Assembly: GCA_951406725.2 (NCBI GenBank)
Contig: OX597827.1
Location: 78,988,001-79,052,000, forward strand
From: Octopus vulgaris
Lineage: Eukaryota
Direction of reading: 5' to 3'
Length of the DNA: 64,000 bases
Within the stretch, counting starts at the first letter, position 1. Each line of letters begins with the position of its first letter. Both the position numbers and the translations under genes were made by a program. Below, piece by piece: positions 7,295-63,806 of the stretch. The notes beneath the pieces are model-generated. The model saw only the letters and a program-made list of their open reading frames with translations. It was not told where the DNA came from and did no database searches.

Positions 7295-7780
7295 TCCTTT
7301 GTATTATAGGCATAAGGCCTGAAATTTTTGTGGGAGGGGGGAAGCAGTCGATTAGATCGACCCCCGTATGCAACTGGTACTTAATTTATCAACCCCAAAA
7401 GGATGAAAGGCAAAGTCGACCTTAGCGGAATTTGAACTCAGAATGTAATGGCAGATGGAATACTGCTAAGCATTTCCCCCGGCGTGCTAACATTTCTGCC
7501 AGCTCACCGCCTTCATACACGCACACACACACACACACACATTTACCTCTCAATCAGAATGATATAAGAGAGAGGCAATCTGGCAGAATCGTTAGCAGGC
7601 TGGGTGAAATGCTTAGCCGTATTTCATCTGTCTTTATGTTCTGAGTTCAAATTCTGCCAAAGTCGACTTTGCCTTTCATCCTTTTGGGTCGATAAATTAA
7701 ATACAGTTGCATACTAGGGTTGATCTAATCGACTGGTCTCTCCCCCAAAATTCCGGGCCTCGTGCCTAGAGTAGAAAAGA
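7295..7780. mobile_element. Head-to-head inverted pair of family-B SINEs in protocadherin 1 intron
   Basis: Minus copy about 7295-7511 and plus copy about 7574-7780, separated by a short (CA)n-containing spacer. Confidence 0.85.
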
Positions 7781-7989
7781 ATCCGAATGACATCGGGTTA
7801 ACTGGTGTAGAATTGGAGCAGACCTTGGCTTAACCAACAGTAAGAAGCATGTAATGTATAGAATTTAGATGAGAAATGAAAGTCTGGCATTGTTCCAAGA
7901 TTAGGGAGTATGTTAGGTATAGTATTCAGAACCATATATTCTATCTTTGAGAGTAGATATTGGTAGCTTAGACAAGTTTTTCAACTCAC

Positions 7990-10293
7990 CTGTTGTGTAA
8001 TTTCTGTTGTTTCAAGAAGAACAGAAGAGTTGACTCCATCTAAGTTTGGTTGTCTGCATGTTGCTGCACTTGTATGTGCATCTGGATCCGGTGCACTTTG
8101 ATCTGATGGATGGATTTTGCGGTGATAATGCTGATTGTTCCTGTTGTTGCATTTAATAATGCACCATGTCAGTGGAATTGCAAAAGATACGGACATCACA
8201 ACAGCCACCAGGATTATGACGACCAATAAACTTGAATCTAGTCCTACCACAGTTTGTTTTTGAGCAGATGTCTTTGATTTCATTTGTTTGTTGTTAATGG
8301 TCACTGTCAGAGTTAAATTAGTAAGAGACGAGAGAGAAGGCGTACCACTGTCCTTCACAGATATCTGTAGCTCATGGACACCCGAATCGTTGACACTGAT
8401 TTGGCGGGCAAATAGGAGTAAACCTGAGTAATGATTGATATCAAACAAGCTTCGATTGTTTCCTGAGATAATGTTGTATGTAAGGAAAGCATTCTGACCC
8501 CAGTCTATGTCCTTTGCCTTTAAAATGGTAATGTTGTTTTGACTGGAGTTGTGGTAGGAAATATCCAGGGGAAAGGGGTTATTTGGGGGGAATGTGAAAT
8601 AGGGGGCATTATCATTTTCATCTGTAATTATGACATTGATACTTGCTGTGCTGCTCAGTGATGGGGTCCCTTTATCACAAGCCATGACTTCAAACTTGTA
8701 ACAGCCTTGTTGTTCACGGTCTAATGGTTCTTTTGCTGATATCACCCCATCTTTGGAAATTTGAAATGGTGTCTTAGATTCATTGCTGGAAGACAGAGAG
8801 AAATGTAACTGTCCCCCCGCTCCGAGGTCTGCATCTGTGGCACTAAGGACACCAATTGAGATGTTAGCTTGGTTGTTTTCTTTTGTCCAAAACTGATAGA
8901 ATTTCTTGGAAAATTTTGGATGTTCATCGTTAACGTCTGTTATGATGACTGAGAACTTGTCTTTGGTCTGCAAAGGTGGCTTACCCTTGTCACGACAGAT
9001 GATTGTGACGTCATAGTAGTCATTCAACTCTCTGTCAACTTTATTTTTAATAATAACTTTGAATTTCTTGGGACCTAATTCTACCAGTTGGAATTTGTCG
9101 TGGTTCATCTGACATTCAATGTCACCATTTTGACCCACATCTTCATCTTCCACTTTAATGTACGCAATGAAACTACCGACTCGGATCTGTTCCGATATAA
9201 TGGCAGTTTTTCCTGATGCCCTCGACACAAAGTTGAAATATATCTTTGGTGGTTGATTAAGTTGATTGATGACACGCACCAGAACAGCAGCCATAGAACT
9301 GAGAGGAGGTTTGCCTCCATCAATTGCCTCCACATACAACCAATGTGTCAGCTTCTGTCCTGAAATAAACTTCCTCTGCAAGAACAATTCACCTGTCTTC
9401 TCATTCAATTCAAAATGCGATTTTAAATTCTCTGGTGTGTTGATGCTGAAATGGTATGTGATGTCACCATTCCTCTCCGTATCTTTATCACTCGCTGATA
9501 ACACCAGAATCGGAGAAGTCTGATAGTTTTCATTGATGGCAGTAATGTTGTAGGCATTCTGTGCAAATACTGGTGGATTATCATTGACATCAAGAACTTC
9601 CACCTCAACATCCAGAACACTCTCTTTAGGTGGGACCCCACGGTCTTTAGCAATTACCTGCATAGTGTACATATCTTTTGTTTCTCTGTCAAGATTGTCT
9701 TTGAGAGAAATCCACAGTTCATCTGTTTCATCCAGGCGTTTGGACACGGTCAGTGAAAAGGGGTCACTAGAACTGACCTTCAGTTGATAGTCTATCTTTG
9801 AGTTTAATATCCCAATATCTTTATCCAGAGCACTTGGAATCTTCCTTATTCTCCCCCTTTTGTCATCCTCTAAAAACTCTATTTTCACTTTACTCTTTGG
9901 AAATTGGGGCCGATGATCATTAAGGTCCAACACGTATATTTTTATCTCAAGAATTTTCATAAATGTCTCGGCTTTTTTAATTGCAATATCTACACTTCTG
10001 GAACATTCTATTTTCTGAACACACATCGACTCAGCATCTAGTATTTGAGTAGTGTACAGCTTGCCTGTTTTTTCTGACACTCGGAAGAAATGAGAACCGT
10101 CTGTTACACCTTGCCCCACCTGACTGAATCGAATCAGATCCATTTCTTTGGCACTGATGCTGTTCAGCAGCTTAGAATCAGCTCCAATGTCACCAATGTA
10201 TGTGTTTGGTTTTTCGCCTTCTTCCACATAATATATTAAGTCGACACACAAGTAACACTGGAGGTTTATAAACACTAGTAATAGTGCGAACAT
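7990..10293 (-). CDS. PCDH: Protocadherin 1, large ectodomain exon (signal peptide, EC1-EC6, TM, proximal tail); unspliced ORF stops at 7981
   Basis: ATG at 10293 (MFALLLVFINLQCYLC). EC1 Cys-X5-Cys (CVQKIEC); linkers DLNDHRP, DVNDNPP, NQLNQPP, DVNDEHP, DENDNAP; LDRE/VDRE motifs; TM LLVVIILVAVVMSVSFAIPLTWCII; ends at consensus donor CAG|GTGAGT. Confidence 0.96.
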
Positions 10294-10372
10294 GACACGA
10301 TGAAGTTGGACACAGTTTTGTGAGAGTGGTTTCACTCATGAAGCCCCAGGGAGAATACATCAGGTAATTCAT

Positions 10373-40850: not shown

Positions 40851-43832
40851 TCACGTTTGTTTGTCATCCAATGGAGGTTTTTCTTCTGATGCATAAAGGA
40901 CATGGTAGAACGCACCCTTTGGCATACTTGAACATGGATCACTTCGGTCTGTTGCATTCGACTTCATTGAAGAAATTGTGTCTGACTGCAGAGATGACGT
41001 CGCAGTTGCATTGGACTTGAGTGATGATGTGGCGGTAGTACTTGATGATTTCCCAGAAGACGTTGCTGTTGCGTTTGATTTCAGAGACGATGTGGGGGTG
41101 TTATCTAAAACCAGCGGTGGTGGTGTCACTGCTGTATCAGCTGCCATCGCTGCAGTCTTTTTGATTAACGGTTCATTGCTTTTAGCACAAATAATAATTG
41201 GTTCCTTTTTATGACGTCTCGCTTTGCCTTTCTTCTTTTCCGGAATCTTTTTTGTCGGAAGTTCAACTTTGCGATTGTCACGTTGAACTGCTTTTTCTTT
41301 GAGTGCAATCTTCTGCTCATGGGGCAGAATGTCTCCTTCTAAAACACTCGTCCTCCGTGTTGGTGGGTTGATGAACCTCTTCTTTTGTTCCGACGTTCTT
41401 CTATTTGCGGCTTCTATTTGTTCTGGAGTCATTTTCTGTTCAGGAATAATAATTTTTTGTTCTTGTATTGACATTTCTGCTGAACTACGCTCATTGCTGT
41501 GTCTCCTGGAAAGAGTGGAATTACTGAGACTCTGTTGTTCTGAAGACCTTCTGTTTACTTGCGGATCTGTATGGAATATTTCTTGCTCAGCAGAATAATT
41601 CAAAAGACTTTGTTCAGCTGCTTGTTTTATTGTCGGGCTGACTCGTCCACTTTCTGGTGCTTTGGATTGGTTTTTCCACTGAATAATACAAACTGTTAAT
41701 GAGATCGATATTGATATGGCTATTATCACAGAAAGCAGTACAATAACTATGACCAAATTGAGGTGGATTCTGTCACTCGGCTGTGTTCGCTGGTGCATGA
41801 TCATTTCCTGTGTATCATTGCTGACACTCAGGATTAAAGTTAGTGTTGTTGTTGATGACAGAACGGGAATGCCACTGTCTTTGACGAGGAACTGTAGGTC
41901 ATAGGAACCAGCATCATTTCGGTAAACATCCCGTGTGAAAGACAACAAACCATTATAAGAATCAAGCGCAAACAAATCTCTTTCGTTGCCTCCAACAATT
42001 TCAAACTGAAGGAAGGCGTTTCTTGGACTGTCATTATCGAAAGCTTTCAAAAAAGTGATATTGTTGCTACTTTGTGGTTCATAGTAGACCTCCATAACTG
42101 CAGGATTCTCACTTGGAAAAGTAAAGAATGGTGCATTGTCATTTTCATCCATCACTTCCACAACAACGCTGGCAGAAGTGTTCAGTGAAGGTCTTCCGTT
42201 GTCTCGGACAAACACTGGAAATTCATACAATTCTTTAGTTTCTCGGTCTATTCGGCCTTTTGTGGTGATCAACCCATTCTCCGATATTTGAAAAGGAAGG
42301 CTATTTTCATCTTTCTCAGACATGAAATAGTGGAGTTCACCTCCAGAATCTAAGTCAGGATCAGTAGCATTGACAAAACCAACTGGGAAATTTGGAGCCT
42401 GGTTCTCATAAGAGAGGAACTTGAATGTATCTTTTGTAAATTCTGGTCTCACATCGTTGACGTCTGTCACTTGGATTGAAAACTTACGTTCTGCTTTCAA
42501 TGGAGGCGTCCCTTTGTCTTGACATATTATGGAAAACTCAAAATGGTCTTGTTCTTCTCGGTCTATGGGATTTTTTGCAATTACTTGGTATTCTTTTGAG
42601 CCTAAAATCTGTAGCTGGAATTTATCATGGTTAAGTTCACAAGAAATCTCTCCATTTTGGCCAATATCATCGTCAATAATTATCACATAGGCAATGAAAC
42701 TTCCTACCTTAATGGCTTCTGAGATTGTTGCAGAGTTTTCGGATTGTGAAGTGAGGAATTTAACGTCAATACGGGGAGTTTTATTTTGTTGGTTGATAAC
42801 ATTTACAAATACAACAGCAGTGGAACTTAGGGGAGGATTTCCACCATCGATGACATCTACAAATAATTTATAGGTTAGTATTTGTCTTGATGGGAATCTT
42901 CTCCGCAGGAAGATTTCCCCTGACATTTCATTCAAATCAAAATAGTCTTTGGCAATATTGGAAGTCTGAGAACTAAAGCGGTAAAATATTCGACTGTTCT
43001 CGCCTGCATCTAGATCTGTTGCAGAGAGAGTTACAACTGGTATGGACCTTGGGTGGGATTTTTTAATGGAAACATTATAAACATTCTGTGAGAAAATGGG
43101 TGAGTTGTCGTTAACATCTGAAATGGATATTTGAACCCTTAAACTACTTTGTTGTGGTGGGTATCCTTCATCTTTGGCAATAACTTCCAGAGAATATTGA
43201 TCTCTCACTTCCCTGTCTAACTTTTCATCGAGGATAATTTCAAGTTTGGCCCGGCCGTCAACTCTTTTTGAAACTGTCAATGAAAAGGGTTCGTCTACAT
43301 CTTTACTAAGTTCGTACGTAATTTTGGAAGTTAAGATACCCACATCTCTATCTATTGCATTGGCTATTGATCGCTTTGTGCCCCTTCCATCAGTTTCCGA
43401 GAACCAAAGGTCCACCTGACTGTTGGGAAACTCTGGTCGGTGGTCATTTATATCTTCTATGCTAACTTTTATTTTTAATATTTTAACAAATGCTTCCTCT
43501 TGATGTATCACACATTTTAGAATCCTGAAACAATCCGTGGCATATATGCAAAGGGCTTCAGCATCCAACCTTTTAACTGTGTAAAGCTTCCCTGTTTTGG
43601 AGATGTTAAAAAGCTCAAAGTTTTCCGATGAACCTACATGAAGCTGACTAAATGTGATCTGGCTGTGATCCTGGGCCGAGAACTGGTCATGGAAGTGGGT
43701 GTCTTCAGCTATGTCACCAATCAACGTCCCAGGGCGTTTCTCTTCTGCTACATTGTAGGAAAGGTCTGTGCAGGATGAGTTATGCAGCAGGAGAAACAGT
43801 AACAACAGCTCCGCTAACATAGCCTCATGCAT
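40851..43832 (-). CDS. PCDH: Protocadherin 2 (993 aa; signal peptide, EC1-EC6, TM and long cytoplasmic tail in one exon)
   Basis: Signal MLAELLLLFLLLHNSSC; EC1 CIYATDC; linkers DINDHRP, DVNDNSP, NQQNKTP, DVNDVRP, DENDNAP; LDRE/IDRE motifs; TM LNLVIVIVLLSVIIAISISISLTVCII; no interruptions. Confidence 0.97.
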   Translation of the reverse strand: MHEAMLAELLLLFLLLHNSSCTDLSYNVAEEKRPGTLIGDIAEDTHFHDQFSAQDHSQITFSQLHVGSSENFELFNISKTGKLYTVKRLDAEALCIYATDCFRILKCVIHQEEAFVKILKIKVSIEDINDHRPEFPNSQVDLWFSETDGRGTKRSIANAIDRDVGILTSKITYELSKDVDEPFSLTVSKRVDGRAKLEIILDEKLDREVRDQYSLEVIAKDEGYPPQQSSLRVQISISDVNDNSPIFSQNVYNVSIKKSHPRSIPVVTLSATDLDAGENSRIFYRFSSQTSNIAKDYFDLNEMSGEIFLRRRFPSRQILTYKLFVDVIDGGNPPLSSTAVVFVNVINQQNKTPRIDVKFLTSQSENSATISEAIKVGSFIAYVIIIDDDIGQNGEISCELNHDKFQLQILGSKEYQVIAKNPIDREEQDHFEFSIICQDKGTPPLKAERKFSIQVTDVNDVRPEFTKDTFKFLSYENQAPNFPVGFVNATDPDLDSGGELHYFMSEKDENSLPFQISENGLITTKGRIDRETKELYEFPVFVRDNGRPSLNTSASVVVEVMDENDNAPFFTFPSENPAVMEVYYEPQSSNNITFLKAFDNDSPRNAFLQFEIVGGNERDLFALDSYNGLLSFTRDVYRNDAGSYDLQFLVKDSGIPVLSSTTTLTLILSVSNDTQEMIMHQRTQPSDRIHLNLVIVIVLLSVIIAISISISLTVCIIQWKNQSKAPESGRVSPTIKQAAEQSLLNYSAEQEIFHTDPQVNRRSSEQQSLSNSTLSRRHSNERSSAEMSIQEQKIIIPEQKMTPEQIEAANRRTSEQKKRFINPPTRRTSVLEGDILPHEQKIALKEKAVQRDNRKVELPTKKIPEKKKGKARRHKKEPIIICAKSNEPLIKKTAAMAADTAVTPPPLVLDNTPTSSLKSNATATSSGKSSSTTATSSLKSNATATSSLQSDTISSMKSNATDRSDPCSSMPKGAFYHVLYASEEKPPLDDKQT

Positions 43833-43876
43833 AGCAGTTGCAGACGCTGGTCTTCAAAGAAATATATCTACAGGCC

Positions 43877-51033: not shown

Positions 51034-52262
51034 GATTTTCTTTCCCTGATAACTTCATAATACTTAATTCCTACAAACCCTATTTCTCGTTTCCACACAC
51101 CGAACAGTCCACAGAGAGCCACAAAGAATACATTCAGTCGTGATGGCAGTGGGAGAAATATTTGCTTCTTGTTATTGATATGAAAAAATCAATAATTGAA
51201 ATAAAATAATGAACGATTGCAATGATTTGTACCTAAACATCAGCCTAAACAAATGCAATTACAGAATTTGGTGGGGGTGCAAGTGTGTGTGTGTGTGTGT
51301 GTGAAGTTGAAACCTTTCATTAGAAAAGAGGGGACTCCCCAGAAGTAGCCAATTGATCAGGAAATATGGTTTCGCTGAGATGGCAGCAGAGGTAATGGTG
51401 TGAAGAGATTACTGACCATGTTTAATAATAATAAATTTTGGTAACTGTACTCAGGTTTGGAGCTAAGATTCATGGTTCCTCGGACTAATTGAATCTTGAC
51501 TCTTTTACAGGAATTTTTCCTCAGGAATTTTCACATTTTGTTTTTATTATATTTTCCCATTTGTTTTCCTTTGTATTTGACAGATGACAATCCTATGATG
51601 TGGTCCTCCCTGGCTCATTGTGCTCCAGGTATCTGCTCATGGTGTCATCAGTGCCTCCAATTACCCCCAACTGGATCTGAAAGCATTAACTGACTTTCAG
51701 GTCTCCCTGACTTCATTCTCAGAAATATTTCAGGGGTTAGGATGACACCTTAAACCTTTCATGTTCTTAATTGATTGCATCTTCTTAAGCGTTTGGTCTT
51801 TTACCATTGATGCTTTTAATCCAATTTAATCCTTGATCTTACAATAAACCAAATGATCCACAACCTTAAAGGAAGTTATCATCTTTTGTAATATTTCTTC
51901 TTTCATTTTGTCAACATTTGACTGTGCTGCCCCCTGCTGTCAGGGCTAAGAACTATTTTAAATACAAAATCATCCATAATATGGCAACAAAGCAAAGTGG
52001 TTGGGTAGTTTTGTGATAATTTTCCCTTTTTGAAAATCATTAACTATAATTATAATTACAACTGTATCTGATTTAATTTTCAATGAAATTGTAATTTTGA
52101 ATTTTAATAAAAATTTAAGTATTTTTTTCATGTTATTTGTTCAATTGCTTTTGCCGCTTCTGTTGTTACTGTTGTTCTTGTTGTTGTTCTCAGTATAGTG
52201 GCTATGATATAACTGTTTCATTTCATTTATATTTAACTGTAGAACATATAAAAGAATAATTT

Positions 52263-52404
52263 ACATTCAACAGATATTTGTCCTCATCTTGTTTGTTGTT
52301 AACACAATGTTTCGGCTGATATACTCTCCAGCCTTCATCAGGTGTCTTGGGGAAATTTTGAACCTGGGTTCTCATTCCTAAGATAGTTTTTGATGTTGTT
52401 GTTG

Positions 52405-52460
<56 letters not shown>

Positions 52461-52586
52461 GTTATTGTTCAGGTCACTGCTTGGAATTGAACTCGGAATC
52501 TTGGGGTTAGTAGCCTGCACTCTTAACCACTACACCATATGCCCGTGGGCATATGACATAGTGACCTGAACAATAACAACAACAAC

Positions 52587-52681
<95 letters not shown>

Positions 52682-52865
52682 CATTGAAAAATACCTTAGG
52701 AATGAGAAACTAGGTTTGAAATTTCTCCCAAGACACCTGATGAAGGTTGGAGGGTATATCAGCTGAAACGTTGTGTTAACAACAAACAAGATGAAAACAA
52801 ATATCCGTCAAATGTAAATAATGTAAATAATGTTCATGATTCCTCATCTCTTAAATATAGAACAG
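52263..52865. mobile_element. Inverted dimer of a tRNA-head/(AAT)n/hammerhead non-autonomous retroelement with 16-bp TSD
   Basis: TSD tataaaagaataattt at 52247-52262 and 52866-52881; inverted arms; hammerhead cores at 52301-52346(-) and 52732-52777(+); tRNA-like head with A/B boxes at about 52473-52545(-). Confidence 0.8.
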
Positions 52866-53864
52866 TATAAAAGAATAATTTTCAATAAACATTAACATTA
52901 AAAAACATGTCTTTGATTTTCCCTTAAAAACGGACAGGAAGAAGGTGTATGTATGCGTATCTCAACAGGTGAAAACTGACTGGTTGAACAATTATGTAAA
53001 GCAGATAGATCTTAACATCAGCCCCTCAAAAACACTTGTTCATAAACCCTAACAGTCCTTCACATATCACTAAGGATGAGAAACTATGTGGAAGGGCTTC
53101 ACATATTTAGAAAGCCTTATGAATCAAGTCAAAGAAGGGGAAAGGGACACGAAGCAAGGCTTATTAAAGCTTGTGTGGTGTTCACGAGACTTCAGTTAAT
53201 CTGGAAAGTCTTAGAACTAAAATTGGATTCTCTCCAGAGCAATGTAAAATCTCCCAAAATGTATGGCTCAGACTTACGGTGGTGTTGTGAGCATGCTTGT
53301 TGGTCTCCCTCTCAACAATGCCCCAGACATAGTAGGTTCAATTTTTCAATCTATTGAGGACTAAGAATATTAATAATAATAATAATGATAATGATGATAA
53401 TAATAATAATAATAATAATAATGATAATAATAATGATGGTGATGATGATGATGATGATGATGATGATGAGGAGGAGGAGGAGGAGGAGGAGGAGGATAAG
53501 CAGTTGTCGTCGATGAAAAAGGTGATAGTAGTACCAATAATTGTCAGAGCCCTGGGAACAGTGAGTAAAAATCTCGAGAAGTACGTGGAACAAATAGGGG
53601 CTGCAATAAGGGTGGAAGTCATGCAGAAAACGGCACTGCTTGGAACTACTTAAATACTCCGGATGGTGCTTGAGATAAATAACATGATGTTTGAGGAAAA
53701 ATCTGTCACAACATGTCAAATGTTGCTGAGGCAAGAAGGTCAGTTTGACCAGTGCTGACCTTGGGCTAAATTAGCCCCAGGTTGCTGAGTGAGAAGGGAG
53801 ATGCACTAGTGATGCTCTCATTTTAGCAAGGCAGCACCAACAAAAGTATTTACTCAAAATGTAG

Positions 53865-57931: not shown

Positions 57932-58115
57932 ACATATATATATATATAAAAAGCACCCACTACACTCATGGAGTGGTTGGCGTTAGGAAGGGTATCCAGC
58001 TGTAGAAACATTGCCAGATAAGACTGGAGCCTGGTGCAGCCTTCTGGCTTCCCAGATCCCTGGTCGAACCGTCCAACCCATGCTAGCATGGAGAACGAAC
58101 GTTAAACGATGATGA

Positions 58116-58152
<37 letters not shown>

Positions 58153-58929
58153 ACATATATATATATATCATCATCATCATCATCATCATTTAATGTCCAC
58201 TTTCTATGCTGGCATGGGTGGCATGGGTTGGACAATTTGGCTGAGGACTGGTGAACCAGATGGTTACACCAGGCTCCAATCTAATCTGGCAGAGTTTCTA
58301 CAGCTGAATGCCCTTCCTAATGCCAACCACTCCATGAGTGTAGTGGGTGCTTTACGTGCTGCCTGCACAGGAGCCAGTCAGGTGGTATCTTCTTTTATAT
58401 AGAAGATCAAAAATAAAATCACAGATGGCAAAATAGGAAGGTACAATGAAAATTTCATGAGGTAATGCTTGAATGTTTTGAAGTGGGAATCTAAAGGATG
58501 TCTTCACACTATAAGGCTCAATAATAATAATAATAATAATAATAAAAATAACAATAACAACAACAACAATCATTATGATGATGATGATGATGATGGTTTC
58601 AAATTTTGGCTCAAGGCCAGAAAGTTCACGGTAGTCGGTTAAATTGACCCCAATACACAACTGGTATGATTTTATTGTCCCCAGAAGGATGAAAGGCAAA
58701 GTCAACCTCAGCGTAACACTCAAAATGCCACCACCTAAGAGTCTGAAAGCGACTGGAATTGAGATTTGCTTGTTGACCTGCAGAAAAGTGCCAGAGTGTA
58801 TTCTGCAAGAATCTTAAGAAAGATTTTTGAGATTTGTTGTCATCAAACCTAAACGTAAAATTCCTGCTAATTAAATTAGCATGTAAGAGAATAATAATAA
58901 CACTAATAATAATGATGATGATGATGATG

Positions 58930-59393: not shown

Positions 59394-59625
59394 AAATAAT
59401 AATAACATTCCTTTCTACTATAAGTACAAGGCTTGAAACTTAGGGGAGGGGCATAGTTGATTTTATATCGACCCCAGTACTCAACAGGTACTTTATTTTT
59501 CGACCCCAAAAGGATGAAAGGTAAAGTTGATCTCGGCAGAATTTGAATTTTTCCCAGCATGCTAACGATTCTAACAGTTCACTGCCATGAATAATAATAA
59601 TAATGATAATAATAATAATAATAAT

Positions 59626-59679
<54 letters not shown>

Positions 59680-62126
59680 TCCCATAATTGGAAATCCCCT
59701 GGTAAAGATAGGGTGCCGAATTTCTGGCTCGCATCGCTCCCATGCGCACACGGTAAGCTAGTTCAGCTGCTCAATGGAATTATGAGAGACCCAAAGAAAA
59801 CACCTGAATGGTTAGCAAGTGGCATTACTTACCTACTCCCAAAGAATAACGAAACCAACCTTCCAAAAAACTATCGGCCTATAACCTGTCTATCCACCAC
59901 GTATAAAATCCTAACATCTATCCTGGCAGAGAAAACATATGCATTCATGGAGAAGAACGATATTTTCCCCATTGAACAAAAAGGGTGCCGCCGAGGCTCT
60001 TACGGATGCAAAGATCAACTGCTAATCAATCGTATGATCCTTGAGAACTGTCACAACAAGCGCAGAAATCTCAGCACCGCATGGATTGACTACAAAAAGG
60101 CCTTCGACAGTATACCGCATCCATGGATCTTGAGATCGCTGGACATCTTCAAAATTTCCCCTGTGATTTCAAACTTCCTGAAGCACAATATGTCATTGTG
60201 GAATACGAATCTCCAATTATACCACTCTAATGGAGTACTTGCCTCAGAAAATATAAACATCAACTGTGGAATTTTTCAAGGTGACTCACTTTCACCTTTA
60301 ATATTCTGCATAGCCCTAATACCCCTTACAAGTGAATTAAACAGAACAGGGTATGGGTATAAAATTGCCAATAAAAAAATAAGCCATCTATTTTATATGG
60401 ATGACTTAAAACTTTATGGTAAAGACAATAATGAACTTGAAGGCCTATTGCGCACCGTGAAAGCATTCAGCGATGACATCAGGATGGAGTTTGGACTTGA
60501 GAAGTGTGCCAAGGCCACTTTCCAGAAAGGGAAAGTGAAGACCACAAATTCAGTCGTGTTAGATGTTGACACAGTCATAAGAGAGCTTGAGCAAGAACAA
60601 ACATACAAATATTTAGGGATAAATGAAGGCTCTGGTATTCAGCATGCAAGCATGAAAGAGAAAATCAGGAAGGAATGTTATAGGAGAGTTCGTGCAGTCC
60701 TGAAATCTGAACTAAATGCACGTAACAAGGTGTTAGCTATAAATTCCTTAACAGTTCCAGTTGTTACTTATAGCTACAATGTGTTGAACTGGAATATGAG
60801 TGAAGTAAAGAATATAGATAGAAAAATACGCAAGCTGCTGAGTTGTGATAGGATGCACCACCCAAAGGCAGACGTAGATCGCCTTTACTTTCCCAGAGCC
60901 CAAGGAGGTCGAGGCCTGATCCAATTTGAACTAGCTTACAAAACAGCCAACATTTGGACTGGCCAAATATCTCGAAATATCGAATGACTGGATGCTAAAG
61001 CTCGTGGAAAATCACGAGAGACGAAAGAAGCTTCATTCTATCATAAAGGAAAGCAAAAAATTTGCTATTGATCTCGTGCAAGATACCCAAACTGAACAAC
61101 CCGAGGGAAGTATGGCAACTATTGTTGCAAAGAAGGTGAAAATGATAGCAATGAAAAAAGTGCACGAGCAATTGGCTGATAGGTGGGAGGAGAAACCTCT
61201 GCACGGCAAATATGTGACCCGCAGCAAACAAGCTGATGTTGACCAGACGCAAACCCATCAGTGGCTACGGAGCTCAGGGCTAAAAGCAGAGAGCGAAGGT
61301 TTCATCCTGGCTGCTCAAGATCAAAGCCTATTAACCCGGAACTACCAGGCCAATGTGATGAAAAATGGAGCAGACCCAAAATGCCGATTCTGCAACGACA
61401 TGATTGAAACAGTGGACCACCTAATCTCTGGATGTAAAGTCTTAGCACCAGTGGAGTATAAATTAAGACATGACGGAGTTGGCCAATATCTCCACTGGCT
61501 AATAAGTCGGCATTACAATATCAAAACTGCCGACAAGTGGTATAATCACCACCCTGAGGTTGTAACTGAAGGAGAAAATGTAACCATTCTGTGGGACTTT
61601 CCAGTACATACAGACTGAACCATCAAGGCCAATAAACCAGATATTGTTGTGAAAGACCAAAACAATAAAGTTTACTTATTGATCGACATGAGCATCCCCT
61701 GTGATCATAATATCTCAGCGAAAGAGTTTGACAAGCTCAGAAAATATAAAGACCTACTCATTGAAATTGAGAAAATGTGGCATCTCAAGGCGGTTACAAT
61801 ACCAGTGATCGTAGGAGCACTAGGAATGATCAAGAAGGGAACCGAAAATTATATGAGAATGATCCCTGGCTTACCATCCCTGCAAGAAGTGCAAAAGATT
61901 GTCTTAACTGGTACATCACACGTATTGAGAAGAACATTGTCGATGTGAGAACTGTTGCTGCTCATGTATTTTAATTTAACTTTAAAAAAAAAAAAAAAAA
62001 AAAATGAACGAACTACTGAGTTTGGTTTAATGGCCTACCAATGTATACTATGAGTTTCTTTGCCCTAGGAGTCGGGAAGACACTCGGCAAGAAATGGAAG
62101 CAAATTTGAAAGAAGAAAAAAAAAAG
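59680..62126 (+). mobile_element. 5'-truncated R4/Dong-clade non-LTR retrotransposon (RT + CCHC + restriction-like endonuclease), inactivated
   Basis: HNWKSPGKD, NYRPITCL, QGDSLSPLIFC, YMDDLKLY; CRFC..ETVDHLISGC, RHD, KPDIVV..IDMSIP..K. +1 frameshift near 60953 and in-frame TGA at 61616. (TAA)n on both sides. Confidence 0.93.
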
Positions 62127-62146
62127 TAATAATAATAATAATAATA

Positions 62147-63806
62147 AACAATCAGCCACCTTTTATATATGGATGGCCTAAAACTATACGCTACAAATGA
62201 TAAACAGCTGGAAACACTATTACAGACAGGACATGGATTTACCAAAGAAATAAATATGAAATTTAGATTAGAAAAATGTGTCAAAGCATCCCTGAAAAGA
62301 GGAAAACTAGTTAAGAGGAGCAACATCACACTAGATAAAGCCAATGAAATAAGAGAATTAGACCAAAACCAGACATACAAATATTTAGGAATCAATGAAT
62401 TAGATATGATACAACACACACAAATGAAAGAGAAAATAAAGAAAGAATTCTATAGATGAGTTAGATCAATACTAAAAACTGAGCTCAATGCTAAAAACAA
62501 GATAATAGGTATTAACACTTCAGCTGTCCCAGTTATAAGTTACAGCTACAATATCCTTAACTGGACACTAAATGAACTAACCAAAATAGACAGGAAAACA
62601 AGAAAAATAATGACAGGATCTAGGATGCACCACCTAAAATCTAACATAGAAAGGCTATATATACAATGTATAGAAGGTCGTAGAGGCCATATACAGCTGG
62701 AAAATTATTATAAAATAACCACCATAGGACTGCAAAAATACCTACTTCAGAAGCAAGGAAAACTAATACAAATAGCCAGAAAACATGAGCAAAACAAAAA
62801 CCTGTTCTCAGTATTTAAGGAAGCTGACAAATACAAACAAGAAATAATACCACCTAATAAATATGAAGAAGAAGATGAAGAAACAACAAAAGCTATAAAA
62901 CAAATGAAATCCAAACTAAAAATAGAACAGCAACGAACCATGATAAAACGATGGCAAGAAAAGCCCCTTCACGGCAAATACTGGACTAAACTAAATGCAA
63001 AAGAAATAGACAGAGAAAATCCCCAGCAATAGTTGAGAAGCTCAGGACTCAAAGCAGAGACTGAGGGATTTTTAATTGCAGCACCAGACCAAAGCCTCCC
63101 CACCAGAAATTACCAAAAACATATAATGAAAAGAAACATAACAAGTAACTGCAGAATATGTGGAGATGGGCAAGAAACAATAAATCATATTATCTCTGGC
63201 TGCCCAGTCCTGGCTAAGAAGGAATATATTCACAGACACGACAGAGTTGAGACCTACATACACTGGAAACTATGCCAACACTATGGAATAACAACAGAAA
63301 AAAGATGGTATAGGCACACACCACAAAAGGTCACAGAAAACGAGAAAGCAACCATACTCTGGGATATGCCAATACACACAGATAGAGAAATTAAGGCCAA
63401 TAGGCCAGATATAGTTATCAGAGATCATGAAGAAAAAAATGCTTTCTAATTGATGTATCAATACCAGCAGATGACAACGTGTATCTAAAAGAAATGGAGA
63501 AACTTTCAAAAAAACAAAGACCTGGAAACAGAGGTAACTAGAATGTGGAATCTAAAAACAGAAACACTTCCTATCATAGTAGGTGCATTAGGCATGATAA
63601 AAAAATATTCAGACAAATACATAACAAAAACACCAGGACTTACAAACACATATAACATACAGTAAATTGCACTACTAGGCACTGCACACATCCTACACAG
63701 AACACTTTCAATACAGTAACCATCACAACAAATCACAGCACATACCCAAGGCACACAGAGCTGCACTCGGTAGTGCAGTGAAAGCACGATATGAAAATAA
63801 AACTAG

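Follow-up and report, generated by a model that had tools for sequence, protein, structure and literature searches.

Anatomy of the insert

The window, by which we mean the whole 64,000-nt stretch of Octopus vulgaris DNA that was analysed (contig OX597827.1, positions 78,988,001 to 79,052,000), holds two single-exon cadherin-repeat ORFs on its minus strand, of 784 aa (7981-10335) and 1000 aa (40851-43853), both protocadherin-like by eye. Approximately 8.4 kb upstream of the second of these lies a 635-bp insert composed of two pseudo-LTR (pLTR) copies arranged head-to-head, the length including the target site duplications (TSDs) at either end (52247..52881). Elsewhere in the window, two other abundant short repeat families are found as inverted pairs, tail-to-tail or head-to-head around a microsatellite (7295-7780 and 57950-58353), and broken LINE-like RT frames occupy 59575-61618 and 62460-63449 of the plus strand. 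The features of the insert are listed in Table 1.

Table 1. Features of the inverted insert, in window coordinates.
Feature	Position	Strand	Remarks
Left TSD	52247..52262	+	16 bp; last 4 nt also match the element 3' end
Tail-less arm: pLTR 3' part, where the Penelope ORF opens (ATG at 52375)	52259..52394	-	93% to family majority; ends at the upstream RT-start cluster
Minimal type I hammerhead, tail-less arm	52301..52346	-	motif reading; architecture as in PMC4209133
(AAT)n/(AAC)n microsatellite, head to ORF start	52395..52469	-	
tRNA-Arg-derived head, full	52472..52544	-	gap-free alignment to host tRNA-Arg(ACG)
A-box-like and B-box-like motifs	52537-52527; 52494-52483	-	within the minus-arm head
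Palindromic junction of the arms	52536..52555	.	GT loop 52545-52546
Second head, shortened	52547..52568	+	53 nt deleted between two AGTG words
(AAT)n microsatellite, plus arm	52569..52682	+	
Tailed arm: pLTR 3' part, the ORF start	52683..52867	+	89% to family majority
Minimal hammerhead, tailed arm	52732..52777	+	motif reading
One-sided 33-nt Penelope tail	52835..52867	+	on the plus arm alone; cf. PMC11167929
Right TSD	52866..52881	+	16 bp; first 2 nt also match the tail end

The original prediction had described two head-to-head arms that meet at a palindrome and are bracketed by a 16-bp direct repeat, the minus arm running from a tRNA-like head through (AAT)n to a hammerhead, and the plus arm keeping a hammerhead after losing most of its head. 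All of these features were found in place. The junction palindrome is built upon a short inverted repeat native to the element, at -7..+4 of the head. The direct repeat had been taken for a TSD, and rightly: TSDs are copy-specific, and no other locus that was retrieved contains the 16-mer, which is therefore not part of the element consensus. Since its left copy shares 4 nt and its right copy 2 nt with the element ends, its true length is 10-16 bp. Absent from the original description were the 33-nt tail of the plus arm and an ATG that starts a frame running across the hammerhead. In the tail-less arm this frame runs on into an 835-aa ORF of the family, of which the window copy carries just the first ~50 codons. 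What inserted here is a pLTR-only copy, in inverted form, of a Penelope-type retrotransposon that is abundant in this genome.

The family and its autonomous element

An exact hammerhead 38-mer had 1,620 matches in the genome and a head 24-mer 3,293, with 0 for the reversed-pattern control of each; on these counts we estimate that the family comprises some 10,000 arms or more. Long copies diverge from the majority sequence by a median of 7.9% and by at least 3.8% (96 alignments), and the family is therefore not very young. It is contained in sequencing runs under five species labels, with no RNA holder among the runs listed.

The unit runs from the ORF stop through 29 nt, the head, (AAT)n, the ATG, the hammerhead and the tail, beyond which the ORF continues. 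The majority ORF of 835 aa was assembled by walking upstream, at a depth of at least 32. Its ATG lies 34 nt ahead of the hammerhead core, and the frame passes through the overlapping hammerhead and the tail. The ORF matches RVT_1 (Pfam), and the top fold match of a modelled 569-aa natural open copy is telomerase RT (TERT, E 1.6e-10); a PDB sequence search gave 0 matches. In the C-terminal ~130 aa, where Pfam has no match, an endonuclease motif resembling GIY-YIG can be read by eye and is kept in 11 homologues. A zinc-finger linker is the clade criterion that sets Neptune apart from Penelope/Poseidon. By inspection, the linker here is free of a cysteine cluster, unlike that of a second Penelope-like family. 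This second family is young (L254 1939-5580 (+), L255, L256), has intact ORFs of >1000 aa and partial tandems, and its cysteine-cluster linker is Neptune-like by eye; at least 18 near-identical open-frame matches to it are listed. No relatives turned up in a metagenome scan.

The head was located 29 nt past the ORF stop in 17/19 ORF-end loci by BLAST, and by eye in one further ORF-end locus that carries an internal deletion. RT/endonuclease-coding DNA lies immediately upstream of the head in 2 of the first 30 loci, and the joint between ORF end and head is spanned by contigs from sequencing runs that carry four species labels. At the other end of the ORF, pLTR sequence is directly upstream in 28/30 N-terminal loci. 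The head 5' end is reached in only 3 of these; two (L260, L263) start at the head and continue into the ORF and one is a tandem. Judging by these joints, the tRNA-like head belongs to the pLTR of an RT-endonuclease Penelope element. Mobilisation by a Penelope-type RT, as had been proposed, is thus borne out by the 835-aa ORF, its RVT_1 and telomerase RT matches and the head behind its stop. The idea of a unit that shares only its 3' end with an autonomous Penelope-like element (PLE) has to be revised, since everything in the unit, the head as well, belongs to the pLTR of the autonomous element itself.

The tRNA-derived head and the hammerhead

The head is identical to the commonest host tRNA-Arg(ACG) gene at 47/73 positions, gap-free and from position 1. 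Among 11 tRNA labels compared, a partial sample of the host set for which the ACG genes were deliberately fetched, tRNA-Arg(ACG) scored best (z 11.8), and the window copy of the head scores 59 against it where the shuffle maximum is 38. The A and B boxes retain their tRNA spacing. Around 20 tRNA-Arg(ACG) genes are clustered near 211.9 Mb of one contig (L185-L193, G000:C2). Among 30 heads, no parent SINE consisting of head and (AAT)n alone came to light; most are followed by the 3' part of the pLTR, often with a secondary insertion in between. In six loci (L088, L112, L068, L008, L262, L272) one recurrent repeat of several hundred bases sits inside the (AAT)n tract, which suggests a microsatellite-targeting element.

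The family-majority hammerhead has the core, the extra base before stem II, G10.1-C11.1 and the palindromic stem III. In the minus arm, G16.2 has become A, breaking the palindromic stem III pair; in the plus arm the stem III palindrome is kept and two stem II pairs, including 10.1-11.1, are now wobbles. With each missing a conserved pair, both window hammerheads are likely to be weak or dead. The linkage of head and hammerhead, asserted for this one locus, extends to other copies and is family-wide. Rfam scans of the insert region and 8 loci gave no hammerhead and no tRNA match at E<=1, and ARAGORN called no tRNA within the window. Both identifications are by direct alignment and motif reading.

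Geometry of insertion

Copies of the family are mostly inverted pairs or singles. Three apparent tandems picked by pattern spacing were really independent short insertions; direct tandems of the short unit do occur (L017). Among 51 inverted pairings from 48 loci, 46 carry one tail, 5 none and 0 two. A TSD of at least 11 bp was found in 31 of the 51 pairings, as compared with 2% of 300 mismatched controls; the TSDs span 11-16 bp and differ copy by copy. The 3' ends form two clusters ~30 nt apart. Junction loop orientation has no arm bias (5 vs 5), and 34/50 short pairings are without the junction centre. The self-complementary 5' ends at -6/-7 are predicted to form a dimer of -12 to -14 kcal/mol. 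ORF-bearing arms often start at pLTR ~128 (L259, L267, L275, L276, L277, L285), the start of short AATGT repeats, and 13/280 5' ends fall in that bin.

One insertion event per pair, as originally proposed for the window copy, agrees with the variants of paired arms. Non-CpG variants are shared within pairs in 11% of 304 cases, as opposed to 4.7% for shuffled pairs, a level reached by 0/2,000 shuffles (43 pairs). Such sharing would be expected if a single source lineage gave rise to both arms in one event, or if gene conversion followed later.

Where copies begin

Heads were sampled in order of position along one contig, with a search pattern that leaves out ends inside the head. Among the first 30, the start lies at -7..+2 of the tRNA in 25, while 5 run into the ORF (three of these being apparent duplicates). 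When 30 loci were anchored on the hammerhead instead, 15 arms reached +9, of which 11 stop by ~-7 (one raw end value of -19 being inflated by the palindrome) and 4 continue for at least 400 nt; only ~5/30 arms have their end within the head on the 3' side of +9. Genome counts of 24-mers, which vary with local mutability, agree with this, falling from 3,293 in the head to 791 at -38 and 436 at -233. A start near -6 is ~13 nt ahead of the A box, as type 2 Pol III promoters would have it.

Over its 2.7 kb, the unit contains zero TTTT on the sense strand. Within the ORF, synonymous shuffles expect 2.9 and yield zero in 2.7% (P=0.027); the signal is modest, and the ORF is T-poor (0.22). Elsewhere, the second Penelope-like family has 14-27 TTTT and host ORFs are at expectation. 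Together, the pile-up of starts at the head and the absence of TTTT suggest a Pol III start. Since most short copies begin at the tRNA-derived segment, this is likely to be the element's own start signal and not the marker of a separate SINE. In RNA-seq from three runs of one study, both strands are covered about equally with no common start, a pattern that fits host read-through of old copies.

Origin of the short copies

Taken together, these data are probably best explained by an inverted pLTR-only copy of a Penelope/Poseidon-type element whose own terminal repeat holds a tRNA-Arg-derived head, likely an internal Pol III-type promoter that fixes the RNA 5' end. The RNA would initiate at the head, and the element protein would nick both target strands ~11-15 nt apart. 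Each nick would then prime one cDNA, at two internal RNA sites ~33 nt apart; priming inside the first pLTR of a head-initiated RNA would yield only a ~300-nt copy ending at the head. Finally, the two cDNAs may join via the self-complementary end at -7..+4 or via other microhomologies, a step that in the window copy would have cost one head 53 nt. In its fullest form, an autonomous protein-coding Penelope would have taken over a tRNA-Arg gene to serve as its Pol III promoter and purged Pol III terminators over its 2.7-kb unit; transcribed by Pol III, it would now mass-produce its own SINE-like pLTR copies, enzyme source and SINE in one. As a whole, that scenario is doubtful.

A captured tRNA or SINE relic could instead sit in the pLTR with no promoter role, in a Pol II transcript, with the RT stalling or folding back at a hairpin at the head 5' end and so producing both the pile-up and the palindromic joints. 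We consider this possible, if rather unlikely. A strong native hairpin is found at exactly that place (~-14..+10; the 35-nt window that holds it, at -11.8 kcal/mol, ranks second in stability across the unit) and could by itself cause the 5' pile-up by stopping or turning the RT; nor do the RNA data contain a start peak. A Pol III transcript that codes for protein would lack a cap and be difficult to translate. In addition, Penelope of D. virilis is described as having a TATA-less, LINE-like internal promoter (PMC2377424). However, the ends lie at -7..+2, beyond the 3' arm and loop, and not at the 3' foot of the hairpin near +10, in the sample that omits ends inside the head. That only ~5/30 hammerhead-anchored arms end within the head also speaks against this reading, as do A and B boxes at tRNA spacing and a unit devoid of TTTT.

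More autonomy is given to the short copies if, as in the original reading, Pol III transcribes the short head-to-tail units independently and they are re-amplified in trans, as a true SINE-like lineage dependent on the Penelope enzyme. Short copies outnumber ORF-linked ones by ~4:1, and their unit has A and B boxes, zero TTTT and some direct tandems. Moreover, short and ORF-linked arms carry three non-CpG alleles at unequal frequencies (p 0.003-0.024), making subfamily-biased amplification of short copies possible. (One large allele difference between the classes was an artefact of top hits chosen with the window's own allele.) Against this, no fixed difference separates 70 short from 46 ORF-linked arms, the main haplotypes are common to both, and the head is part of an autonomous element. 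Furthermore, short copies end ~156 nt past the ATG, where the minimal template of the lizard element PAc is reported to need 172 nt of ORF (PMC11167929), so by this cross-family inference they may lack the binding site. A separate lineage is accordingly unlikely, and with no fixed differences the short copies were not filed as a SINE, though they may work like one.

A non-LTR retrozyme, its ends fixed by hammerhead cleavage and circular RNA, is very improbable: a type I hammerhead is present, two copies are predicted by co-folding to pair via the stem III palindrome and such retrozymes have been proposed as pLTR derivatives (bioRxiv 10.64898/2026.07.22.740005), but of 280 arm 5' ends just 2 map to the 5-nt bin that contains the ribozyme cut and 9 to the next, which rules out cleavage as the source of copy ends. 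In addition, inverted pairs or singles prevail over tandem arrays, and the window hammerheads are damaged and on opposite strands. The original reading of the insert as a separate SINE or retrozyme-like element is therefore set aside, with the head inside an autonomous element, no fixed diagnostic differences in the short copies and no pile-up of 5' ends at the ribozyme cut.

If the head is the promoter of the Penelope element, as we favour, it would offer a route from Penelope to a SINE-like family with no separate partner, and would mean that a Pol III-type promoter drives the ORF of a retrotransposon. Such copies would probably be classed as SINEs by automatic pipelines. Two-site priming has so far been demonstrated in vitro for one lizard element (PMC11167929); short inverted copies, with their exact TSDs and one-sided tails, number in the thousands and provide a large genomic test set for it.

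Comparison with known systems

Three tRNA-derived SINE families of octopus were reportedly described by Ohshima and Okada in 1994; the present family is like them, by description alone, in its tRNA-derived head and high copy number. Schistosoma has SINE-like hammerhead repeats as well, Sm-alpha and Sj-alpha. Repeats of this kind also combine a Pol III-type promoter and a hammerhead in one short unit (PMC6765202); they are tandem and processed by the ribozyme, whereas the octopus unit lies within an autonomous Penelope and its ends follow RT start sites. Metazoan non-LTR retrozymes are likewise short, hammerhead-bearing and related to pLTRs, but are defined by tandem units in bioRxiv 10.64898/2026.07.22.740005, where a term search found tRNA, Pol III and octopus 0 times.

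A tRNA head within an autonomous terminal repeat was not found in the full-text literature searched; in the repeat databases the family may already be catalogued under some label. In the text searched, a 2026 annotation of octopus repeats gives a large number of SINE and Penelope families as unclassified and nothing as specific as this (PMC13282606). The ribozyme itself does not differ from the minimal hammerheads of metazoan PLEs, with their CUGAUGA core, extra base between 9 and 10.1, G10.1-C11.1 pair and palindromic 15.2/16.2; the activity of the class is reported to be low, and close hammerheads on opposite strands have been noted in PLEs (Cervera and de la Pena 2014, PMC4209133). The geometry of insertion is known Penelope behaviour, inverted arms, a one-sided tail and TSDs being established signatures; inverted partner copies and one-sided tails have been described for PLEs (10.1101/2021.04.23.441226).

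The closest system is PAc of Anolis (Penelope/Poseidon EN+), in which RT and a C-terminal endonuclease motif share one ORF (the motif in octopus being read by eye) and the hammerhead lies at the ORF start within the pLTR (PMC11167929). In vitro, the tail of PAc was shown to arise from RT starting at two internal sites (PMC11167929), and both elements have two internal 3' ends giving a one-sided tail of 30-40 nt and an inverted, truncated partner copy (PMC11167929; 10.1101/2021.04.23.441226). Unlike PAc, however, the octopus pLTR has a full-length tRNA-Arg-derived head followed by (AAT)n, its copies are mostly pLTR-only and start at that head, and its sense strand is without TTTT.
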